From the NCBI GenBank assembly GCA_963754125.1, contig CAVWEX010000001.1, forward strand, positions 820,753 through 884,752: a stretch of DNA of 64,000 nt, written 5' to 3'. Under the pieces are notes generated by a model. That model made no database searches. It was not told the DNA's origin and saw only the letters and a list, made by a program, of their open reading frames with translations. This document shows, one piece after another, positions 6,199 through 12,073 of the stretch. Both the position numbers and the translations under genes were made by a program. Position 1 is the first letter of the stretch; every line of letters begins with the position of its first letter. The stretch is from an uncultured Gammaproteobacteria bacterium (GTDB lineage Bacteria; Pseudomonadota; Gammaproteobacteria; Steroidobacterales; Steroidobacteraceae).

Positions 6199-6929
6199 TC
6201 AGGCCGCCGGCGGCGCAGCGCGGGCGCAGCTGCAGCCCGGTGCGCGTCAGCTCGTAGATGCGATCTACGGTGGCCGCGGCAGTGGCCGAGTGCGTGACCA
6301 GCATGCCCGCCGCGTTGTCGCGCTTGATCTGGGCGCGGAGGATCTCGAGGATCACCGCGGCGTTGTCCGGGTCGAGGTTGCCGGTGGGCTCGTCGGCGAG
6401 CACCAGCGCCGGCCGGTGCGCGAGCGCGCGGGCCACGGCGACGCGCTGCATCTCGCCGCCCGACAGCTCGCGCGGCAGGCTGCCGGCGCGGTGCGCGAGG
6501 CCCACGGCCGTGAGCAGTTCATCGACGCGCTGCGCCGCCGCGGGACCGGCCTCGCCGTTGAGCGCGAGCGGCAGGCCCACGTTGCGCGCCACGCTGAGGT
6601 GCGGCAGCAGGTGGAAGGCCTGGAACACGAAGCCCATGCGCGCCCGCCGCACGCGGGTGCGCGCCGTCTCGTCGAGGCTGCGCGAGGTCGCGGCCCTCGA
6701 GCAGGATCTGGCCCGAGTCGGGCACGTCGAGCCCGGCGACGAGGTTGAGCAGCGTGGACTTGCCGACGCCGGACTCGCCCACGATCGCGACGTACTCGCC
6801 CGGCTGCACCGTGAGCTGGAGGCCGTCGAGCACGCGCCGGCCGCTCGCGCCGCCGTAGGACTTCGTCAGGTTGCGAACGTCGAGCATGCCGGTCAGATCG
6901 CAGCCGACGGCCGCGACAGCTGGATTCAT
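6199..6929 (-). CDS. ABC transporter ATP-binding protein (YbbA/LolD-like)
   Basis: ATG 6929 overlaps the ACP stop (ATGA). Motifs: Walker [10 protein letters not shown], signature LSGGEMQRV, Walker [10 protein letters not shown]-loop VTHS. There is a frame change near 6680. As given, the frame runs into the permease. Removing one base from a G/C run (6222-6238) yields ...LQLRRAAPPAA followed by TGA at 6199-6201, which I use as an uncertain 3' end. Confidence 0.75.
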
Positions 6930-7174
6930 CGTCGACGCCGCGGCCCGAGGTAGGCGACGCACTTGTCGAGGCTCGCGAGCCGCGAATAGTCCGTCTCCGG
7001 CACCTCGACGCCGAGTTCCCGGTGCAGCGCGATCGCGAAATTGAGCGTGTCCATGGAGTCGAAGTCGAACTGGTCGCGGAAGTCGATGCCGGGGATGACG
7101 CTCGACGCCTCGACGTCGGGCGCGATTTCGGTGATCAGGTCGAGGATACGCTTTGCGAGATCTTCGCGATTCAT
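6926..7174 (-). CDS. Stand-alone acyl carrier protein
   Basis: The protein is 82 aa with a phosphopantetheine attachment motif (DFDSMDTL). An AGGA-type RBS lies upstream of ATG 7174. The gene sits 9 nt after the E2 stop. Confidence 0.85.
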
Positions 7175-7183
7175 CTCATGTCC

Positions 7184-8338: not shown

Positions 8339-9321
8339 CGCTGAACAACCCCCGCACGGCGGCGACGATGCGCTTGGCGTTCGGCAGCGCCGCCTCCTCG
8401 AGATGCTTCGGATACGGGATCGGCACTTCCTCGGTGCACACCCGCGCGATCGGCGCATCGAGGTCGTAGAAGCCCTGCTCCACGATGCGCAGGCCGACCT
8501 CGGCCGCGAGGCTGCCGGTGCGCCAGCCTTCGTCCACGATCACGACGCGCTTGCGTCCTGCGCACCGAGGCGAGGATGGTCGCGTCGTCGAGCGGACGCA
8601 GGCTGCGCAGGTCCACGATCTCGGCCTCGATGCCGCCCGCGGCGAGTTCCTCCGCCGCCGCGACGCAGCGCCACAGGCTCGCGCCGTAGGTCACGAGCGT
8701 GACGTCGCGGCCGGCGCGGTGGATGCGCGCGCCGTCGAGTCGCACTTCGGATGCGGCGGCCGTGAGTTCCCCTTCCATGTTGTAGAGCGAGATCGGCTCG
8801 AACACGATCACCGGGTCGGGACAGGCGAGCGCGGCGCGCAGCATGCCGCGCGCGTCGTCGATGGTCGCGGGCTCCACCACGCGCAGCCCGGGCACGTGCG
8901 CGTACCAGGCCTCGAGGCTGTGCGAGTGCTGCGCGGCGAGCTGCCGCCCCGCGCCCGTCGCCATGCGGATCACGACCGGCACCGGGAACTGCCCGCCCGA
9001 CATGTGGCACAGCGTCGCCGCGTTGTTCACGATCTGGTCGAGCGCGAGCAGGCTGAAGTTGACCGTCATGATCTCGACGATCGGCCGCATCCCGCCGAGC
9101 GCCGCGCCGATGCCGGCACCGACGAACGCCGACTCCGAGAGCGGCGTGTCGCGGATGCGCTCCTCGCCGAATTCCTCGAGCAGCCCCTTGCTGACCGCGA
9201 AGCAGCCGCCGTACTTGCCGACGTCCTCGCCCATCAGGAACACGCGCGGATCGTCGTGCAGCGCCTCGCGGATCGCCTGCTTCACGGCCTCGCGATAGGT
9301 GATGCGCACGGTGTCGCTCAT
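8328..9321 (-). CDS. 2-oxoacid dehydrogenase E1 beta subunit
   Basis: ATG 9321 overlaps the E1alpha stop (ATGA). The sequence runs [21 protein letters not shown]...[12 protein letters not shown]...IRDTPLSE, typical of E1 beta. The last 71 aa come from ORF 8328..8543, with a frame change near 8545. Confidence 0.85.
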
Positions 9322-10309
9322 GACGCCACCTCCGCGTAGACGTGGCGCGCGAGGTCCTCGACCGGCTCCCACTCGGCGCGCTGCGGCGAACTCCGCTGCG
9401 GCACGCACCTCGTCGTCCGCCTGCGTGCTGCAGGCGCTGGAAGTCGTCCTCGGTCATCAGGCCCGCGGCCTTGAGCCGCGTCGTGAGCGTGATGAGCGGC
9501 CCGCGCTGCGCGCCACTCCTCGACCTCGGCCTTGTCGCGGTAGAGCTGCGCGTCGAACATCGAGTGCGCGCGCAGCCGGTAGGTGCGGAACTCGAGCAGC
9601 ACCGGGCCACGGCCCGCGCGCGCGTGCTCCGCCGCGCTGCGCACCGCCGCCTCGACCGCGAACACGTCCATGCCGTCCACCGCCGCGGCGCGCACGCCGT
9701 AGGCGGCGGCCTTGGCCTGGATGTCGGTCTGCGACTCCGAGCGCGCCAGCGCCGTGCCCATGGCGTAGAGGTTGTTCTCGCACAGGAACAGCACCGGCAG
9801 CTTCCACAGCGCCGCGAGGTTCATGCGACTCGTGGAACTCGCCCTCCGCGGCCGCACCTTCGCCGAAGAAGCAGGCGGCGAGGTTGCGGCGTGCCCTGCA
9901 GCTTCTCGGCGAGCGCGAGCCCCACCGCGAGCGGCAGCCCGCCGCCCACGATGGCGTTGCCGCCGTAGAAGCGCGTGGCCGCGTCGAACACGTGCATCGA
10001 GCCGCCGCGCCCGCCGCTGCAGCCGCTGCGCTTGCCGTACAGCTCCGCCATCAGCGGGTTCATGGCGATGCCGCGCGCGAGCGCGTGGCCGTGCTCGCGG
10101 TAGGTGGAGACGATCGCGTCGCCCGAGCCCAGCACCTGCATGACGCCGACGGCGATCGCCTCCTCGCCGTCGCACAGGTGCAGGAAGCCGCGGATGTGCC
10201 CGGCGCCGTAGAGCTCCGCGCAGCGGTCCTCGAACTGGCGGATGCGCAGCATCTCGCCGAGCAGGTGCAGGCCGCGCTCGCGGGTGAGTCCGGCGGGCAG
10301 GTCGCTCAT
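9318..10309 (-). CDS. 2-oxoacid dehydrogenase E1 alpha subunit (ThDP-dependent)
   Basis: ATG 10309 overlaps the ligase stop (ATGA). Motifs: [36 protein letters not shown]. Hand translation gives [46 protein letters not shown]. There are about five frame changes, near 9897, 9828, 9490, 9415 and 9385. Confidence 0.8.
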
Positions 10310-12073
10310 GGCGCAACCTCCAGCGTCGAGAGATCGCCCTCGGGCAGCCCGAGCTCGCGGGCGCGCAGCAGCCGACGCATGATCTTGCCGCTGCGCGTGC
10401 GCGGCAGCTGCTCGGCGAAGGCGATCTCGCGCGGCGCGACCGCGACGCCGAGCAGACGCCGCGCGTGCGCCATCAGCTCGCGGCGCAGCGCCTCGCTCGG
10501 GCGCGTGGCCCGGCCTTGAGCTCGACGAAGGCCTTCACGGCCGCGCCCGCGATCGGGTCCGGCACGCCGATCACGCCCACCTGCGACACCGCCGGGTGCG
10601 TCATGAGCGCGCTCTCGACCTCGAACGGGCTGATGAGGTGGCCGGCGGCCTTGATGACGTCGTCGGCGCGGCCGACGAACCAGTAGTAGCCGTCGGCGTC
10701 GCGCTTCGCGAGGTCGCCGGACAGGTACCAGCCGTCGCGGAAGCACTTGGCCGTAGCGCGCCGTCGTCGTTGAGGTAGCCGCGGAACATCGAGGGCCAGC
10801 CGGGCTTCAAGCGCGAGCTCGCCGACCTCGTCCGCGCCGTCGAGCACGTCCACGGCGCCGTCCTCGCGCGGCTGCACGATGCCGGCCTCGATGCCGGGCA
10901 CGGGCCGGCCCATCGAGCCCGGGCGCACCTCCATGCTCGGGTAGTTGGCGATCATGATGGCGCCCGTCTCGGTCTGCCACCAGTTGTCGTGGAACGGCCG
11001 GCCGAAGGCCTCCACGCCCCACACGACCGCCTCCGGGTTGAGCGGCTCGCCCACGCTCGCGAGGTGGCGCAGCTCGGGTACGCGTGTGCACGGGCGAGCT
11101 CGACGCCCGCCTTCATCAGCATGCGGATCGCCGTGGGCGCGGTGTACCAGACGGTCACGCGCTCGTCGGCGAGGATGCCGTACCAGCGCACCGCGTCGAA
11201 CTCCTCGCGGTCCACGAGCATCGTCACGCCGCAGGCGAGCGGCGCGATCACGCCGTAGGAAATGCCGGTGACCCAGCCCGGGTCCGCGGTGCACCAGTAG
11301 ACGTCGTCGTCCTGCAGGTCGAGCACCCAGCGCGCCGTGGCGAGATGGGCGGCGACGGCGGCGTGCGCGTGCAGCACGCCCTTCGGCAGCCCCGTCGTGC
11401 CGCTGGTGAAATGCAGCAGCGCGTAGTCCTCGGGATCGGTCCGCACGGTCTCGAACTCCGGCGCGGCGGCCTCGAGCAGGACCGCGAAGTCGAGCGTGCC
11501 CTCGGGCAGCTCGCCGGCGCCGGGCGTGCGCACCACGAGCACGTGTCGCAGCTCGGGCAGCTCGGCGCGGATCGGCGCCACCTTGCGCCGGTACAGCAGG
11601 TCGGTGGTCACCAGCACGCGCGCCGAGCCGAGCGACAGCCGCGCCTTCACGGGCTCCGGCCCGAAGGCCGAGAACATCGGGCAGTACACCGCGCCGGCCG
11701 CCAGCGTGCCGAGCACGGTCGCATAGAGCGGCGGGATGCGGCCCAGGAGCGTGGCGACGCACTCGCCGCGCTGCACACCTAAGGCCGTAAGCATGTTCGC
11801 GACCCGACGTGCGTCGGCTGCGAGCTCACGGTACGTGCACGGCCGCGAGGCGGCGCCCTGCGCGAGGAAACGGATCGCCACGCGGTCGCCGGCCGCGCCT
11901 TCCGCGTGGCGGAACACCGCCTCGTGCGCGATGTTGAGCGCGCCGCCCGGCAGACCCGCGAGCAGCGCACGTGCGCGATCCCAGTTGAAATCGCGGCGGG
12001 CCTCGTCGTAGTCGGCGAGATTCGGTGCCCGCGGAAATGCGTCGCGGGCCTTGGCGATGGGCGACCACTCCAT
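10306..12073 (-). CDS. AMP-forming acyl/acetyl-CoA ligase, AcsA-like (first gene of the operon)
   Basis: ATG 12073 has GAGGGG upstream. Adenylate-forming motifs are present: [68 protein letters not shown]. The N-terminus ([17 protein letters not shown]...[12 protein letters not shown]) resembles Bacillus AcsA-type enzymes. There are at least four frame changes, near 11085, 10805, 10750 and 10505. Confidence 0.8.

Follow-up and report, generated by a model that had tools for sequence, protein, structure and literature searches.

Gene content and layout of the locus

The window, i.e. the whole stretch of 64,000 nucleotides that was analysed, comes from an uncultured gammaproteobacterium of the Steroidobacteraceae and carries eight minus-strand genes, whose content and order agree with the original prediction. 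These genes, followed by a neighbouring cassette on the opposite strand, are laid out as follows:

12073 to 10306, minus strand: AcsA-type acetate-activating ligase, ~587 aa frame-corrected, 4-6 frame breaks
10309 to 9318, minus strand: PDH-type E1alpha, ThDP-binding, ~328 aa after correction
9321 to 8328, minus strand: PDH-type E1beta, 330 aa, one frame break
8338 to 7184, minus strand: E2 dihydrolipoamide acyltransferase with lipoyl, E3-binding and catalytic domains
7174 to 6926, minus strand: stand-alone ACP, 82 aa in the window, 81 aa in relatives
~6887 to ~6199 (approximate ends), minus strand: ABC ATPase, LolD/YbbA/MacB-like, one frame break
6181 to 3655, minus strand: duplicated FtsX/MacB-type permease, ~841 aa, one frame break
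3658 to 2545, minus strand: AttH/CrtC-type (AttH-like) double-lipocalin protein, ~370 aa, N-terminal hydrophobic leader, one frame break
12234 to 16545, plus strand: divergent neighbour cassette of flavin reductase, M20 peptidase, DUF1611 and PGM1-type ATP-grasp ligase, outside the conserved module

Most of the junctions claimed earlier were found again: the ATGA overlaps at 10306-10309 and 9318-9321, the GTGA overlap at 3655-3658, the 11-nt overlap at 8328-8338 and the 9-nt gap between E2 and ACP. The ligase/E1alpha/E1beta/E2/ACP junctions are the same in the intact relative L006. The claimed overlap at 6926-6929 is doubtful: it hinges on an upstream ATG beside a 7-nt indel, and the ABC protein of relatives starts with MLDVRNL, which corresponds to position 6887 of the window and leaves a 38-nt spacer after the ACP. 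The ABC and permease genes are separated by a gap of ~17 nt, which had not been mentioned before. Scans of positions 2000-12600 gave no terminator-like or promoter-like sites; this is compatible with a single transcript for the ~9.5-kb operon proposed earlier, but is no proof of it.

Frame switches are required in nearly every gene (~17 breaks over 7 kb). When the window is aligned with the intact relative L002 (92.6% identical), 16 of the 18 indels are single-base insertions in the window, located in CG/GC contexts, and comparable frame breaks occur in the neighbouring operon and in sucD. Because the indels are of this kind and sucD is broken as well, the frame breaks are, as judged by this alignment, assembly errors and not gene decay. 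Once the frames are corrected, protein identity remains 70-100%, and unbroken five-gene sets are present in 47 loci.

The ligase, E1alpha and E1beta pass the NCBI equivalog/subfamily cut-offs for acetate--CoA ligase and PDH: the ligase matches NF003313 acetate--CoA ligase with 861 bits (cut-off 729), E1alpha matches TIGR03182 PDH_E1_alph_y with 438 bits (cut-off 394) and E1beta matches NF006667 with 398 bits (cut-off 321), the scoring pattern of the Sulfurovum and Peristeroidobacter copies being the same. E1alpha scores as PDH-type and as neither acetoin- nor BCKDH-type. Pfam E1_dh is matched by the E1alpha of the intact relative, and E1beta consists of Transket_pyr and Transketolase_C domains. 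Across the module ligases, NF003313 is matched over the full length at 861-911 bits. The closest solved relative of the window ligase is the 572-aa acetyl-CoA synthetase 9g79 (517 bits), and the motifs WWQTETG (acetate pocket) and TRSGKIMRR (catalytic lysine) are kept in module ligases from three lineages. The ligase probably still makes acetyl-CoA, because module ligases resemble the solved CoA-using AcsA-type enzyme as much as they resemble one another.

The E2 contains the Pfam domains Biotin_lipoyl, E3_binding (51.5 bits) and 2-oxoacid_dh (178 bits), and both the lipoyl-Lys motif (ETDK, ~8212-8210) and DHRVTDG (~7267-7247) are present, as reported before. Among solved structures it is nearest to mitochondrial-type PDH E2 chains, its catalytic Ser/His align with human E2p and its catalytic domain resembles an ordinary mitochondrial-type E2p. 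It lies below all NCBIfam E2 cut-offs (201 bits against 445), and no other enzyme of the set diverges as much, the identity between lineages being 40-48% compared with 63-71% for E1beta. A shortened P-x-x-L-stop C-terminus, which ends 2-4 residues before that of solved E2 cores, is common to all ACP-linked E2s. The ACP matches Pfam PP-binding, stays under the AcpP equivalog cut-off (26 bits versus 70) and carries its phosphopantetheine serine in FDFDSMD (DSMD serine at ~7057-7055), a residue retained in every ACP copy listed. Its homologues number 827, the top 120 of them at 78-96% identity.

The five-gene module and its surroundings

As the original prediction stated, the E1/E2 genes are linked with an AcsA-like ligase and with an ACP that stands alone; this link is real and strongly conserved. 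Dozens of bacteria belonging to several phyla carry the five-gene set in one and the same order, the hosts being Steroidobacteraceae, other Gammaproteobacteria, Planctomycetota, Gemmatimonadota and Campylobacterota. Of 61 ACP loci, 54 have E2 as the gene immediately upstream, and the ligase, E1alpha, E1beta and E2 all precede the ACP in 45 of 50 species-level genomes, a count limited to loci whose upstream sequence extends to 5.2 kb or more; 36 of the 47 unbroken loci are non-redundant. On the evidence of gene order, the real unit is these five genes: the AcsA-type ligase, E1alpha, E1beta, E2 and a dedicated ACP. Their proteins point to one shared history, because the pairwise distances correlate with rho of 0.77-0.88. 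The mirror-tree test gave partial correlations with the ACP of 0.29 for the ligase, 0.27 for E1alpha and -0.01 for E2, i.e. no E2-specific co-variation with the ACP. It had been stated that the gene set could not be matched to a described pathway, and we likewise found neither an assigned pathway nor a description of the module in the family libraries and literature searched. Published genome papers label these genes simply pdhABCD, and the carrier protein of this recurring module seems to have remained unexplained in the literature searched.

In agreement with the earlier statement that E3, ketosynthase and PPTase are missing, no homologues of these or of LipA were found in the window by tblastn, a search of limited sensitivity in which each family was represented by just one or two queries. 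An E3 gene is absent from every gammaproteobacterial locus examined, and lipoylation genes are absent from all gammaproteobacterial module loci. The lack of E3 had been presented as unusual, a view that does not hold: the E2 retains its E3-binding domain, and Campylobacterota carry Lpd, LipA and LplA-like genes beside or inside the operon. Sulfurovum has a single operon of ligase-E1alpha-E1beta-E2-ACP-LplA-like-LipA-Lpd, while in Sulfurimonas and Sulfuricurvum the LplA-like, LipA and Lpd genes are divergent to the module. Because Lpd shares one operon with the module in Sulfurovum, we infer that the E3 missing at the window locus is simply encoded elsewhere. The Sulfurovum operon looks like a full PDH kit and still includes the ACP, which argues that the ACP belongs to the working unit. 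The marked divergence of the E2 and the shortened C-terminus of the ACP-linked E2s point in the same direction.

The full four-gene divergent cassette is confined to the closest relatives; L023, L032 and L034 lack it, and there sucCD stands directly ahead of the ligase. The assertion that the window has no regulator was mistaken, since an XRE-type HTH gene (16564-16891) and a PilS-like kinase gene (20505-22142) are present. About half of the distant loci have genes for USP, Hsp20, HPF, CBS, Host_attach, WS/DGAT, acyl-CoA reductase and phasin in the vicinity of the module, and a FixL/FixJ-like pair is found upstream of it in L053, L054 and L059. In many carriers the module is probably part of a low-oxygen or dormancy programme. 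A low-oxygen context is limited, however, to roughly half of the distant loci and is absent from the window, where the kinase near the module is PilS-like and not FixL-like.

Possible function of the module and alternative explanations

Our tentative reading, to which we give a probability of roughly 40%, is that the module is a PDH-type complex with an acetate ligase, which would load acetyl onto its own ACP by analogy with the Qnc/Scl systems and their glycolyl unit. E1 would decarboxylate pyruvate and acetylate the lipoyl arm of E2, E2 would transfer this acetyl unit to the phosphopantetheine thiol of the dedicated ACP, either in place of CoA or alongside it, and an Lpd encoded elsewhere would reoxidise the lipoyl arm. 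The ligase would feed acetate into the same acetyl-thioester pool. The resulting acetyl-ACP would be used by enzymes encoded elsewhere, and its most plausible use would be the priming of fatty-acid or storage-lipid synthesis.

Several observations go against acetyl loading of the ACP: the ligase probably still makes acetyl-CoA, the E2 is like an ordinary E2p and does not co-vary with the ACP, E2-ACP or ligase-ACP fusions are absent among the best 150 ACP representatives and 120 E2 hits, and the module holds no conserved acetyl-ACP consumer or PPTase.

One alternative is that the genes encode an ordinary auxiliary PDH plus acetyl-CoA synthetase, both making acetyl-CoA, and that the ACP is a co-expressed helper, e.g. 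an octanoyl donor for E2 lipoylation or an extra carrier for fatty-acid synthesis that draws on this acetyl-CoA. Such an arrangement, which we consider unlikely though far from negligible, would agree with E1alpha, E1beta and the ligase passing their NCBI cut-offs, with the normal domain set of the E2, including the E3-binding domain, and with the pdhABCD label of the genome papers. The Sulfurovum ACP sits between the E2 and the LplA-like/LipA genes, and among solved structures the ACP comes closest to mitochondrial ACPs (41 bits versus 22 for E. coli AcpP), which are octanoyl donors for lipoylation. However, the ACP stays with E2 and not with the lipoylation genes when these are divergent or when the locus lacks them, as is the case in all gammaproteobacterial loci. 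Additionally, the LplA-like enzyme of the Campylobacterota kit scores, weakly in each case, as lipoate-protein ligase type (LplAB, LplA_large and TIGR00545), and this type uses free acid and ATP, not acyl-ACP; hosts of these groups would also be expected to own a housekeeping AcpP already. In most distant loci the ACP start overlaps the E2 stop by 4 nt, an arrangement which suggests that both proteins are made together in a fixed proportion; in the close clade 8-10 nt separate the two.

The three genes behind the ACP bear on the proposal that all eight genes form one pathway. The ABC ATPase has LolD, YbbA and MacB-type NCBIfam matches, all under cut-offs, and Pfam ABC_tran; the permease, placed in the loci by tblastn synteny, has Pfam MacB_PCD and two FtsX stretches; the AttH-like protein has the Pfam CrtC N-terminal lipocalin (205 bits) and Lipocalin_9 (145 bits). 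Of the close relatives, 24 of 29 have ABC-permease-AttH behind the ACP, against 0 of 23 distant module carriers; by this distribution the three genes are a separable, clade-specific cassette and a local add-on. Five close relatives lack precisely this trio, three of them (L023, L032 and L034) having otherwise the same flanks, and where the trio is missing there is a clean absence between the ACP and a Zn-peptidase gene. The ACP-ABC pair does not always travel with the E1/E2 genes, and the suggested handing of a product to the exporter is without comparative support beyond the close clade. It is therefore improbable that the ACP is the site where a short acyl unit is built and that ABC/permease/AttH exports the product, even though the ABC gene follows the ACP by ~35-120 nt in the window and in the 24 close species-level relatives, terminator-like sites were not detected in the scanned stretch, and AttH homologues with as little as 68% identity still belong to loci of this type. 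No biosynthetic enzyme able to make an exportable product is encoded between ACP and transporter, and FtsX/MacB-type permeases with a periplasmic partner usually serve envelope or periplasmic substrates, not cytoplasmic thioester export. The ABC/AttH genes are best read as a cassette of their own for envelope-lipid handling, probably co-transcribed with the module in this lineage, and not as a demonstrated product exporter.

A closed energy-conserving route for anoxic survival appears quite improbable. Here E1/E2 would form acetyl-S-ACP from pyruvate, the AcsA-type ligase would run in reverse (acetyl-thioester + AMP + PPi -> acetate + ATP) and the ACP would be a private carrier. No external consumer would be needed, which fits the self-contained conservation of the five genes, and neighbours of stress, hibernation and low-oxygen type are frequent. 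The reaction of AMP-forming acetyl-CoA synthetases lies close to equilibrium, and Syntrophus aciditrophicus is reported to run it in reverse. However, the sequences give no sign of ligase reversal, the hint of ligase-ACP co-variation (0.29) is weak, the NADH that E3 produces is a disadvantage when oxygen is lacking, and PPi would have to be supplied.

Finally, a dead pseudogene array, or an acetoin- or branched-chain-type catabolic complex lying beside unrelated genes by chance, might be suspected from the number of frame breaks and from an E2 under every curated E2 cut-off, but it is hardly credible given the single-base nature of the indels, the similarly broken neighbouring operon and sucD, the 70-100% identity after correction, the 47 intact loci, a PDH-type E1alpha, an acetoin E2 model that covers the lipoyl region only (79 bits versus a cut-off of 307) and a gene order kept across phyla.

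Comparison with known systems

The cassette shares the type of ATPase (LolD/YbbA/MacB-like), MacB_PCD/FtsX permease and AttH/CrtC double lipocalin with the MacB/LolCDE/YbbAP-type (FtsX-fold) ABC systems and AttEFGH of Agrobacterium. All its scores are below the curated cut-offs and, unlike these systems, it is joined to an ACP operon and restricted to one Steroidobacteraceae-like clade. The module ligase matches AcsA-type acetyl-CoA synthetases (~570 aa; NF003313; 9g79/9g7f) over the full length with both motifs; unlike them, it opens in every case an operon that continues with PDH E1/E2 and an ACP.

With the heterotetrameric PdhABCD of mitochondria, Alphaproteobacteria and Gram-positives, the module shares PDH-level E1alpha and E1beta, the E2 domain set and DHRxxDG, as well as the clustering with Lpd and LipA in Campylobacterota. 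In contrast to PdhABCD, an ACP is fixed right behind the E2 and an AcsA-type ligase right ahead of E1alpha, the E2 stays under half of the E2p equivalog cut-off (201-224 bits against 445) and has the shorter P-x-x-L end, and E3 is missing from the window and the gammaproteobacterial loci examined.

The nearest mechanistic precedent is the Qnc-type loader, as was recognised in the original prediction. In QncN/L/M and SclQ1-4, E2-like proteins load a stand-alone ACP; these glycolyl-ACP loaders belong to Streptomyces NRPS clusters with a PPTase, and their C2 unit is proposed to come from ketose phosphates, e.g. xylulose-5-phosphate (PMC6335953). The architecture as described there, in which a ThDP-dependent alpha/beta pair resembling E1 and an E2-like protein that has both lipoyl and acyltransferase domains are combined with a small, stand-alone, C2-accepting ACP, is the same as in the module. 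Contrastingly, NRPS/PKS or PPTase genes were not found near the module, its hosts are Gram-negative environmental bacteria, its E1alpha is a PDH equivalog, its E2 retains the E3-binding domain, and the gene set also includes an acetate ligase.

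Conservation and layout of the five-gene module

The conserved unit is well supported as five genes, running from an AcsA-type ligase through PDH-type E1alpha, E1beta and E2 to a stand-alone ACP. Our locus scan, with one genome per species, found 62 loci, most of them from Steroidobacteraceae or unclassified gammaproteobacterial MAGs; further loci come from Peristeroidobacter soli JW-3, Thioalkalivibrio sp. XN8 and MAGs labelled Nevskiaceae, Competibacteraceae, Burkholderiaceae, Tepidisphaeraceae, Gemmatimonadaceae and Sulfurimonadaceae. A tblastn recount found the ACP in 61 loci, and E2 lies directly upstream of it in 54 of these (order E1alpha-E1beta-E2-ACP), the seven exceptions being three contig edges and four loci with a more distant ACP subfamily. 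Of the 50 loci whose upstream sequence is long enough, 45 have the ligase, E1alpha, E1beta and E2 together, and with these counts the original prediction that the E1/E2 set goes together with an ACP and a ligase is confirmed. Most distant loci show a 4-nt overlap between the stop of E2 and the start of the ACP. The pairwise distances of the five proteins are correlated (rho 0.77-0.88), therefore the module has one shared history.

The ACP is matched by generic Pfam PP-binding models only. Housekeeping AcpP was considered and rejected (TIGR00517, 26 bits against a cut-off of 70; best ACP model, 35 bits against 71). The search returned 827 homologues, the best 120 of which are 78-96% identical, and the phosphopantetheine serine is retained in every ACP copy.

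Several loci deserve separate mention. Distant-subfamily ACPs, the nearest relatives of the ACP that lack an E2 link, occur in an unclassified bacterium (L045, 8445-14148), a Lentisphaeria MAG (L058, 8733-10249) and a Planctomycetota MAG (L066, 5698-7543); the ACP adjoins a FabF-like ketosynthase in L058 and a CrtI-like FAD oxidoreductase in L066 and lies between both in L045, a neighbourhood that represents a different lipid or polyene-type cluster. A lone E2 and ACP pair in a Steroidobacteraceae MAG (L049, 8829-10237) was rejected as a minimal system: it consists of the last ~100 E2 residues and the ACP, a degraded module copy inside an island of USP, CBS, Hsp20, HPF, NaPRTase and phosphoribosyltransferase genes. 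Five near-identical locus copies (L016, L017, L018, L025 and L026) lie on five contigs of one MAG, MFD00032.bin.2.79, which suggests unresolved strain variants or assembly redundancy.

The window genes were read by three-frame translation of the minus strand and scored against NCBIfam and Pfam, which bore out the eight consecutive minus-strand genes in their predicted order.

Genes of the window locus, with the model collection that identified each
12073 to 10306, minus strand: AMP-forming ligase (AcsA-type acetate--CoA ligase); NCBIfam
10309 to 9318, minus strand: E1alpha; NCBIfam/Pfam
9321 to 8328, minus strand: E1beta; NCBIfam/Pfam
8338 to 7184, minus strand: E2; Pfam
7174 to 6926, minus strand: ACP, 82 aa; Pfam PP-binding
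~6887 to ~6199, minus strand: ABC ATPase; Pfam
6181 to 3655, minus strand: duplicated FtsX/MacB-type permease; Pfam
3658 to 2545, minus strand: AttH/CrtC double-lipocalin protein; Pfam

The junctions claimed within the module proved correct: the ATGA overlaps at 10306-10309 and 9318-9321, the 11-nt overlap at 8328-8338 and the 9-nt gap between E2 and ACP are identical in the intact relative L006. The overlap claimed at 6926-6929 did not hold, however, as it depends on a non-conserved upstream ATG adjoining a 7-nt indel; in relatives the ABC protein starts with MLDVRNL (window 6887), leaving a 38-nt spacer after the ACP. Scans of window 2000-12600 found no terminator-like or promoter-like sites.

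Enzymes of the module and the proposed acylation of the ACP

The ligase matches the NCBIfam equivalog NF003313 (acetate--CoA ligase) over its full length with 861 bits against a cut-off of 729, and a solved 572-aa acetyl-CoA synthetase with 517 bits. The module ligases of three lineages keep the motifs WWQTETG, which we take to be the acetate pocket (Trp), and TRSGKIMRR, which presumably holds the catalytic A10 lysine. E1alpha passes the PDH equivalog TIGR03182 (438 bits, cut-off 394) and E1beta passes NF006667 (398 bits, cut-off 321), with the same outcome against the PDH cut-offs for the E1 copies of Sulfurovum (L073) and Peristeroidobacter (L064). Judged by these profiles, E1alpha and E1beta belong to the PDH clade of the alpha/beta-E1 type. 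An acetoin dehydrogenase (AcoABC) was rejected, the AcoC-type E2 model NF011457 covering the lipoyl region only with 79 bits against a cut-off of 307. The profile-HMM check proposed with the original prediction thus gave an E1 pair above the PDH cut-offs and an E2 that is not of AcoC type.

E2 consists of Biotin_lipoyl, E3_binding and 2-oxoacid_dh domains (Pfam). The window copy carries ETDK with the lipoyl lysine and the catalytic motif DHRVTDG; aligned with human E2p, its catalytic Ser (in LTSLG) falls on that of ISNLG. Its closest solved relatives are mitochondrial-type E2p chains. Against the E2p model TIGR01349 (cut-off 445) the window, L073 and L064 copies score 201, 207 and 224 bits, all below, and E2 is under half of any E2 equivalog cut-off in each of the three lineages tested. 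It is also the most diverged module enzyme, with a cross-lineage identity of 40-48% against 63-71% for E1beta, and has a uniformly shortened C-terminus, P-x-x-L.

Searching with the E2 of the Sulfurimonadaceae locus brought up a large clade, drawn from Sulfurimonas, Sulfuricurvum and Sulfurovum, in which the five module genes keep their order. Sulfurovum has a single operon ligase-E1alpha-E1beta-E2-ACP-LplA-like-LipA-Lpd (MAG loci L073 and L074, 4286-12351), and in Sulfurimonas sp. HSL3-7 (CP147919.1; L070, 2879-11508) and Sulfuricurvum (L075, 1144-9391) the LplA-like, LipA and Lpd genes are divergent and upstream. LipA and Lpd are above equivalog cut-offs (Lpd: TIGR01350, 435 bits against 409). 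Each of these loci looks as if it could supply all that a host lacking lipoate metabolism needs, and the module there looks like a complete, transferable PDH kit in rTCA autotrophs; the ACP belongs to it and remains with E2 wherever the lipoylation genes sit. The linkage to LplA-like, LipA and Lpd genes implies that the module is a genuine lipoyl-dependent, E3-using complex. In line with the original prediction, no E3 homologue was found in the window, by tblastn with one or two query proteins per family, nor in the gammaproteobacterial flanks. Its absence from the window would only mean that E3 is encoded elsewhere in the genome, which fits the retained E3-binding domain of E2.

2-Oxoacid dehydrogenase complexes hand acyl groups to CoA. 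Within the conserved module, only E2 and the ligase could acylate the ACP, and our main reading, to which we assign a probability of about 0.4, is that E2, perhaps also the ligase, acetylates the dedicated ACP. E2 as the loader is favoured by the tight E2-ACP junction, by the strongest divergence in the set, by the shortened C-terminus and by the precedent of QncN/QncL/QncM and SclQ1-4, the glycolyl-ACP loaders of Streptomyces NRPS pathways. Other observations are undecided or speak against it: the ligase resembles an ordinary CoA-using AcsA-type enzyme, and the E2 catalytic domain is ordinary-looking. No fusions of ACP with E2 or ligase were seen among the best 150 of 1132 ACP representatives (64-239 aa), nor of E2 with ACP among the 120 E2 matches listed (357-434 aa). 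In a mirror-tree test of 36 non-redundant modules, whose pairs are not independent, ACP distances follow those of each of the four partners (rho 0.77-0.82). Partial correlations with the ACP, from the same non-independent pairs, are -0.01 for E2, 0.29 for the ligase and 0.27 for E1alpha, and this test gave no signal of E2-specific co-variation.

The broader form of the main reading, in which a PDH-type E2 acetylates the ACP instead of CoA and the AcsA-type ligase charges or discharges this carrier, as a CoA-independent and widespread system, is rather doubtful; the module is hosted by Steroidobacterales and other Gammaproteobacteria, Campylobacterota, Planctomycetota and Gemmatimonadota. Alternatively, the module may be an ordinary acetyl-CoA-forming PDH with an Acs, and the ACP may have a side role, for example in lipoylation or fatty-acid synthesis. 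Genome papers take the Campylobacterota genes, e.g. those of Sulfurimonas, as ordinary pdhABCD. We consider this alternative somewhat less likely than the main reading. The ACP is co-inherited with E2, often translationally coupled, in dozens of species and several phyla, which points either to an acceptor other than CoA or to an accessory subunit that has gone unrecognised. The remainder of the weight falls on an exporter pathway, on a reversed-ligase, ATP-yielding route and on pseudogene or other-family readings.

Neighbouring genes and frame breaks

Of the 29 loci with an ACP identity of 70% or more, 24 have an ABC gene behind the ACP, against 0 of the 23 E2-linked loci below 70%. The trio is absent from L023, L032 and L034. 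A Zn-peptidase gene (PF04228) lies directly after AttH in the window (1559-2569, plus strand) and directly after the ACP in L023 and L034, and this position marks the boundaries of the ABC/AttH cassette. By gene content, the ABC-permease-AttH trio is a present/absent cassette, an add-on to the module. Pfam matches (ABC ATPase, MacB_PCD/FtsX permease, AttH/CrtC lipocalin protein) identify the transporter as an FtsX/MacB type with a periplasmic lipocalin partner; none of the three proteins reaches a curated NCBIfam equivalog threshold. The idea of an eight-gene pathway whose product goes to the exporter is consistent with the close loci, but not with the distant ones, and no chemical link to an ACP-bound product was found. 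In the proposed neighbourhood comparison the ACP travels with E2, whereas the ABC gene is clade-limited.

On the other side of the ligase, a divergent operon (window 12234-16545, plus strand) encodes a flavin reductase, an M20 peptidase, a DUF1611 protein and a PGM1-type ATP-grasp ligase, and is followed by an XRE-type HTH gene (16564-16891, minus strand). The operon, too, is an add-on: it is only in the closest relatives that operon and XRE gene separate sucCD from the ligase. The operon may act on a small peptide or N-acyl amino acid. The ATP-grasp gene alone is divergent to the ligase in L009, L021, L024, L027 and L077.

In Peristeroidobacter soli the five genes stand alone, with a PAS hybrid kinase, a phosphoribosyltransferase and a Host_attach gene on the upstream side and a dienelactone-hydrolase-like gene, a ribosome hibernation factor, a GMC oxidoreductase, an acyl-CoA ligase, a patatin, a phasin and a WS/DGAT on the downstream side. 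Clustering of neighbours found universal stress proteins, Hsp20, HPF, CBS proteins, FtsH, RtcB, wax-ester/triacylglycerol genes and a long acyl-CoA reductase to recur in about half of the distant loci. A FixL/FixJ-like pair lies upstream of the module in L053, L054 and L059 only, whose kinases carry what we take to be a FixL-like heme-PAS motif. Gene context suggests that the module may be used under oxygen limitation or dormancy, linked to lipid storage.

A FixL beside the module everywhere was rejected, as the clustering had merged histidine kinases: those of the window and L023 are PilS-like, the former being part of a housekeeping sucCD-pilS neighbourhood. The Burkholderia lxa low-oxygen locus was also rejected as home of the module, the lxa paper mentioning neither an ACP nor a PDH. 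The Host_attach gene (PF10116 / baeRF family 12) recurs near the module in the very distant hosts Peristeroidobacter (L064, 1542-2057), Sulfurovum (L073, 13397-13834) and Sulfuricurvum (L075, 675-1097).

Aligned with the intact metagenomic relative L002 (92.6% identical), the window has 18 indels in 7 kb, of which 16 are single-base insertions on the window side; none is in a long homopolymer and nearly all are in CG/GC contexts.

Frame-breaking indel positions in the window
11074, 10810, 10763, 10755, 10513, 10501, 9889, 9826, 9507, 9421, 9379, 8554, 8143, 7970, 7961, 6680, 6219

Frame-breaking indels span window ~5300-17000, almost all of them +1 and in CG/GC-rich contexts, not homopolymer errors. 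This pattern looks like a systematic error of long-read assembly or polishing, which would disturb gene calling throughout this genome. The divergent operon carries single-base indels too, and the housekeeping gene sucD (succinyl-CoA ligase alpha subunit, 17603-18467, minus strand) has a frame switch that falls between residues 74 and 89. Its neighbour sucC is unbroken, as is the PilS-like kinase (20505-22142). The frame breaks are assembly errors: the dead pseudogene array that the original prediction named as a refuting option is very unlikely given the single-base insertions, the broken sucD, the 70-100% identity of the frame-corrected window proteins to relatives and the unbroken module copies in 47 related loci.

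Comparison with the Qnc/Scl loaders

We found no NCBIfam model specific to the module ACP or E2, and no account of the module in the literature on E1/E2/ACP clusters, acetyl-ACP with lipoyl/PDH, AttH/YbbP or Sulfurimonas PDH, in agreement with the prediction that the gene set matches no described pathway. The literature found describes a dedicated ACP alongside PDH-type E1/E2 proteins only for the Qnc/Scl natural-product loaders. Taking the genes as plain pdhABCD has consequences for metabolic models of sulfur-oxidising Campylobacterota and of the abundant soil and sediment Steroidobacteraceae. The chemistry of the module is directly testable, as three cultured carriers exist. Should E2 prove to load the ACP, the five genes would also offer pathway engineering a compact pyruvate-to-acyl-ACP part.

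SclQ1-4 comprise an E1-like pair, a lipoyl-E2-like protein and an adjacent stand-alone ACP, onto which the E2-like protein puts glycolyl (PMC6335953). Unlike Qnc/Scl, the module is not part of an NRPS/PKS cluster that includes a PPTase. As predicted, tblastn with one or two query proteins per family found no ketosynthase or PPTase homologue in the window; no ketosynthase lies beside the E2-linked ACPs in the loci examined, and the recurrent neighbour families include no NRPS/PKS genes. An E1alpha above the PDH equivalog cut-off also argues against membership in the QncN/L/M clade, whose E1 is proposed to use ketose phosphates, Qnc/Scl being compared by published architecture. What the two have in common is the E1-like pair, the lipoyl-E2-like protein and the neighbouring stand-alone ACP. 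If E2 indeed loads the ACP, lipoyl-E2-to-ACP transfer, described for two natural-product pathways of Streptomyces, would reach into central carbon metabolism.
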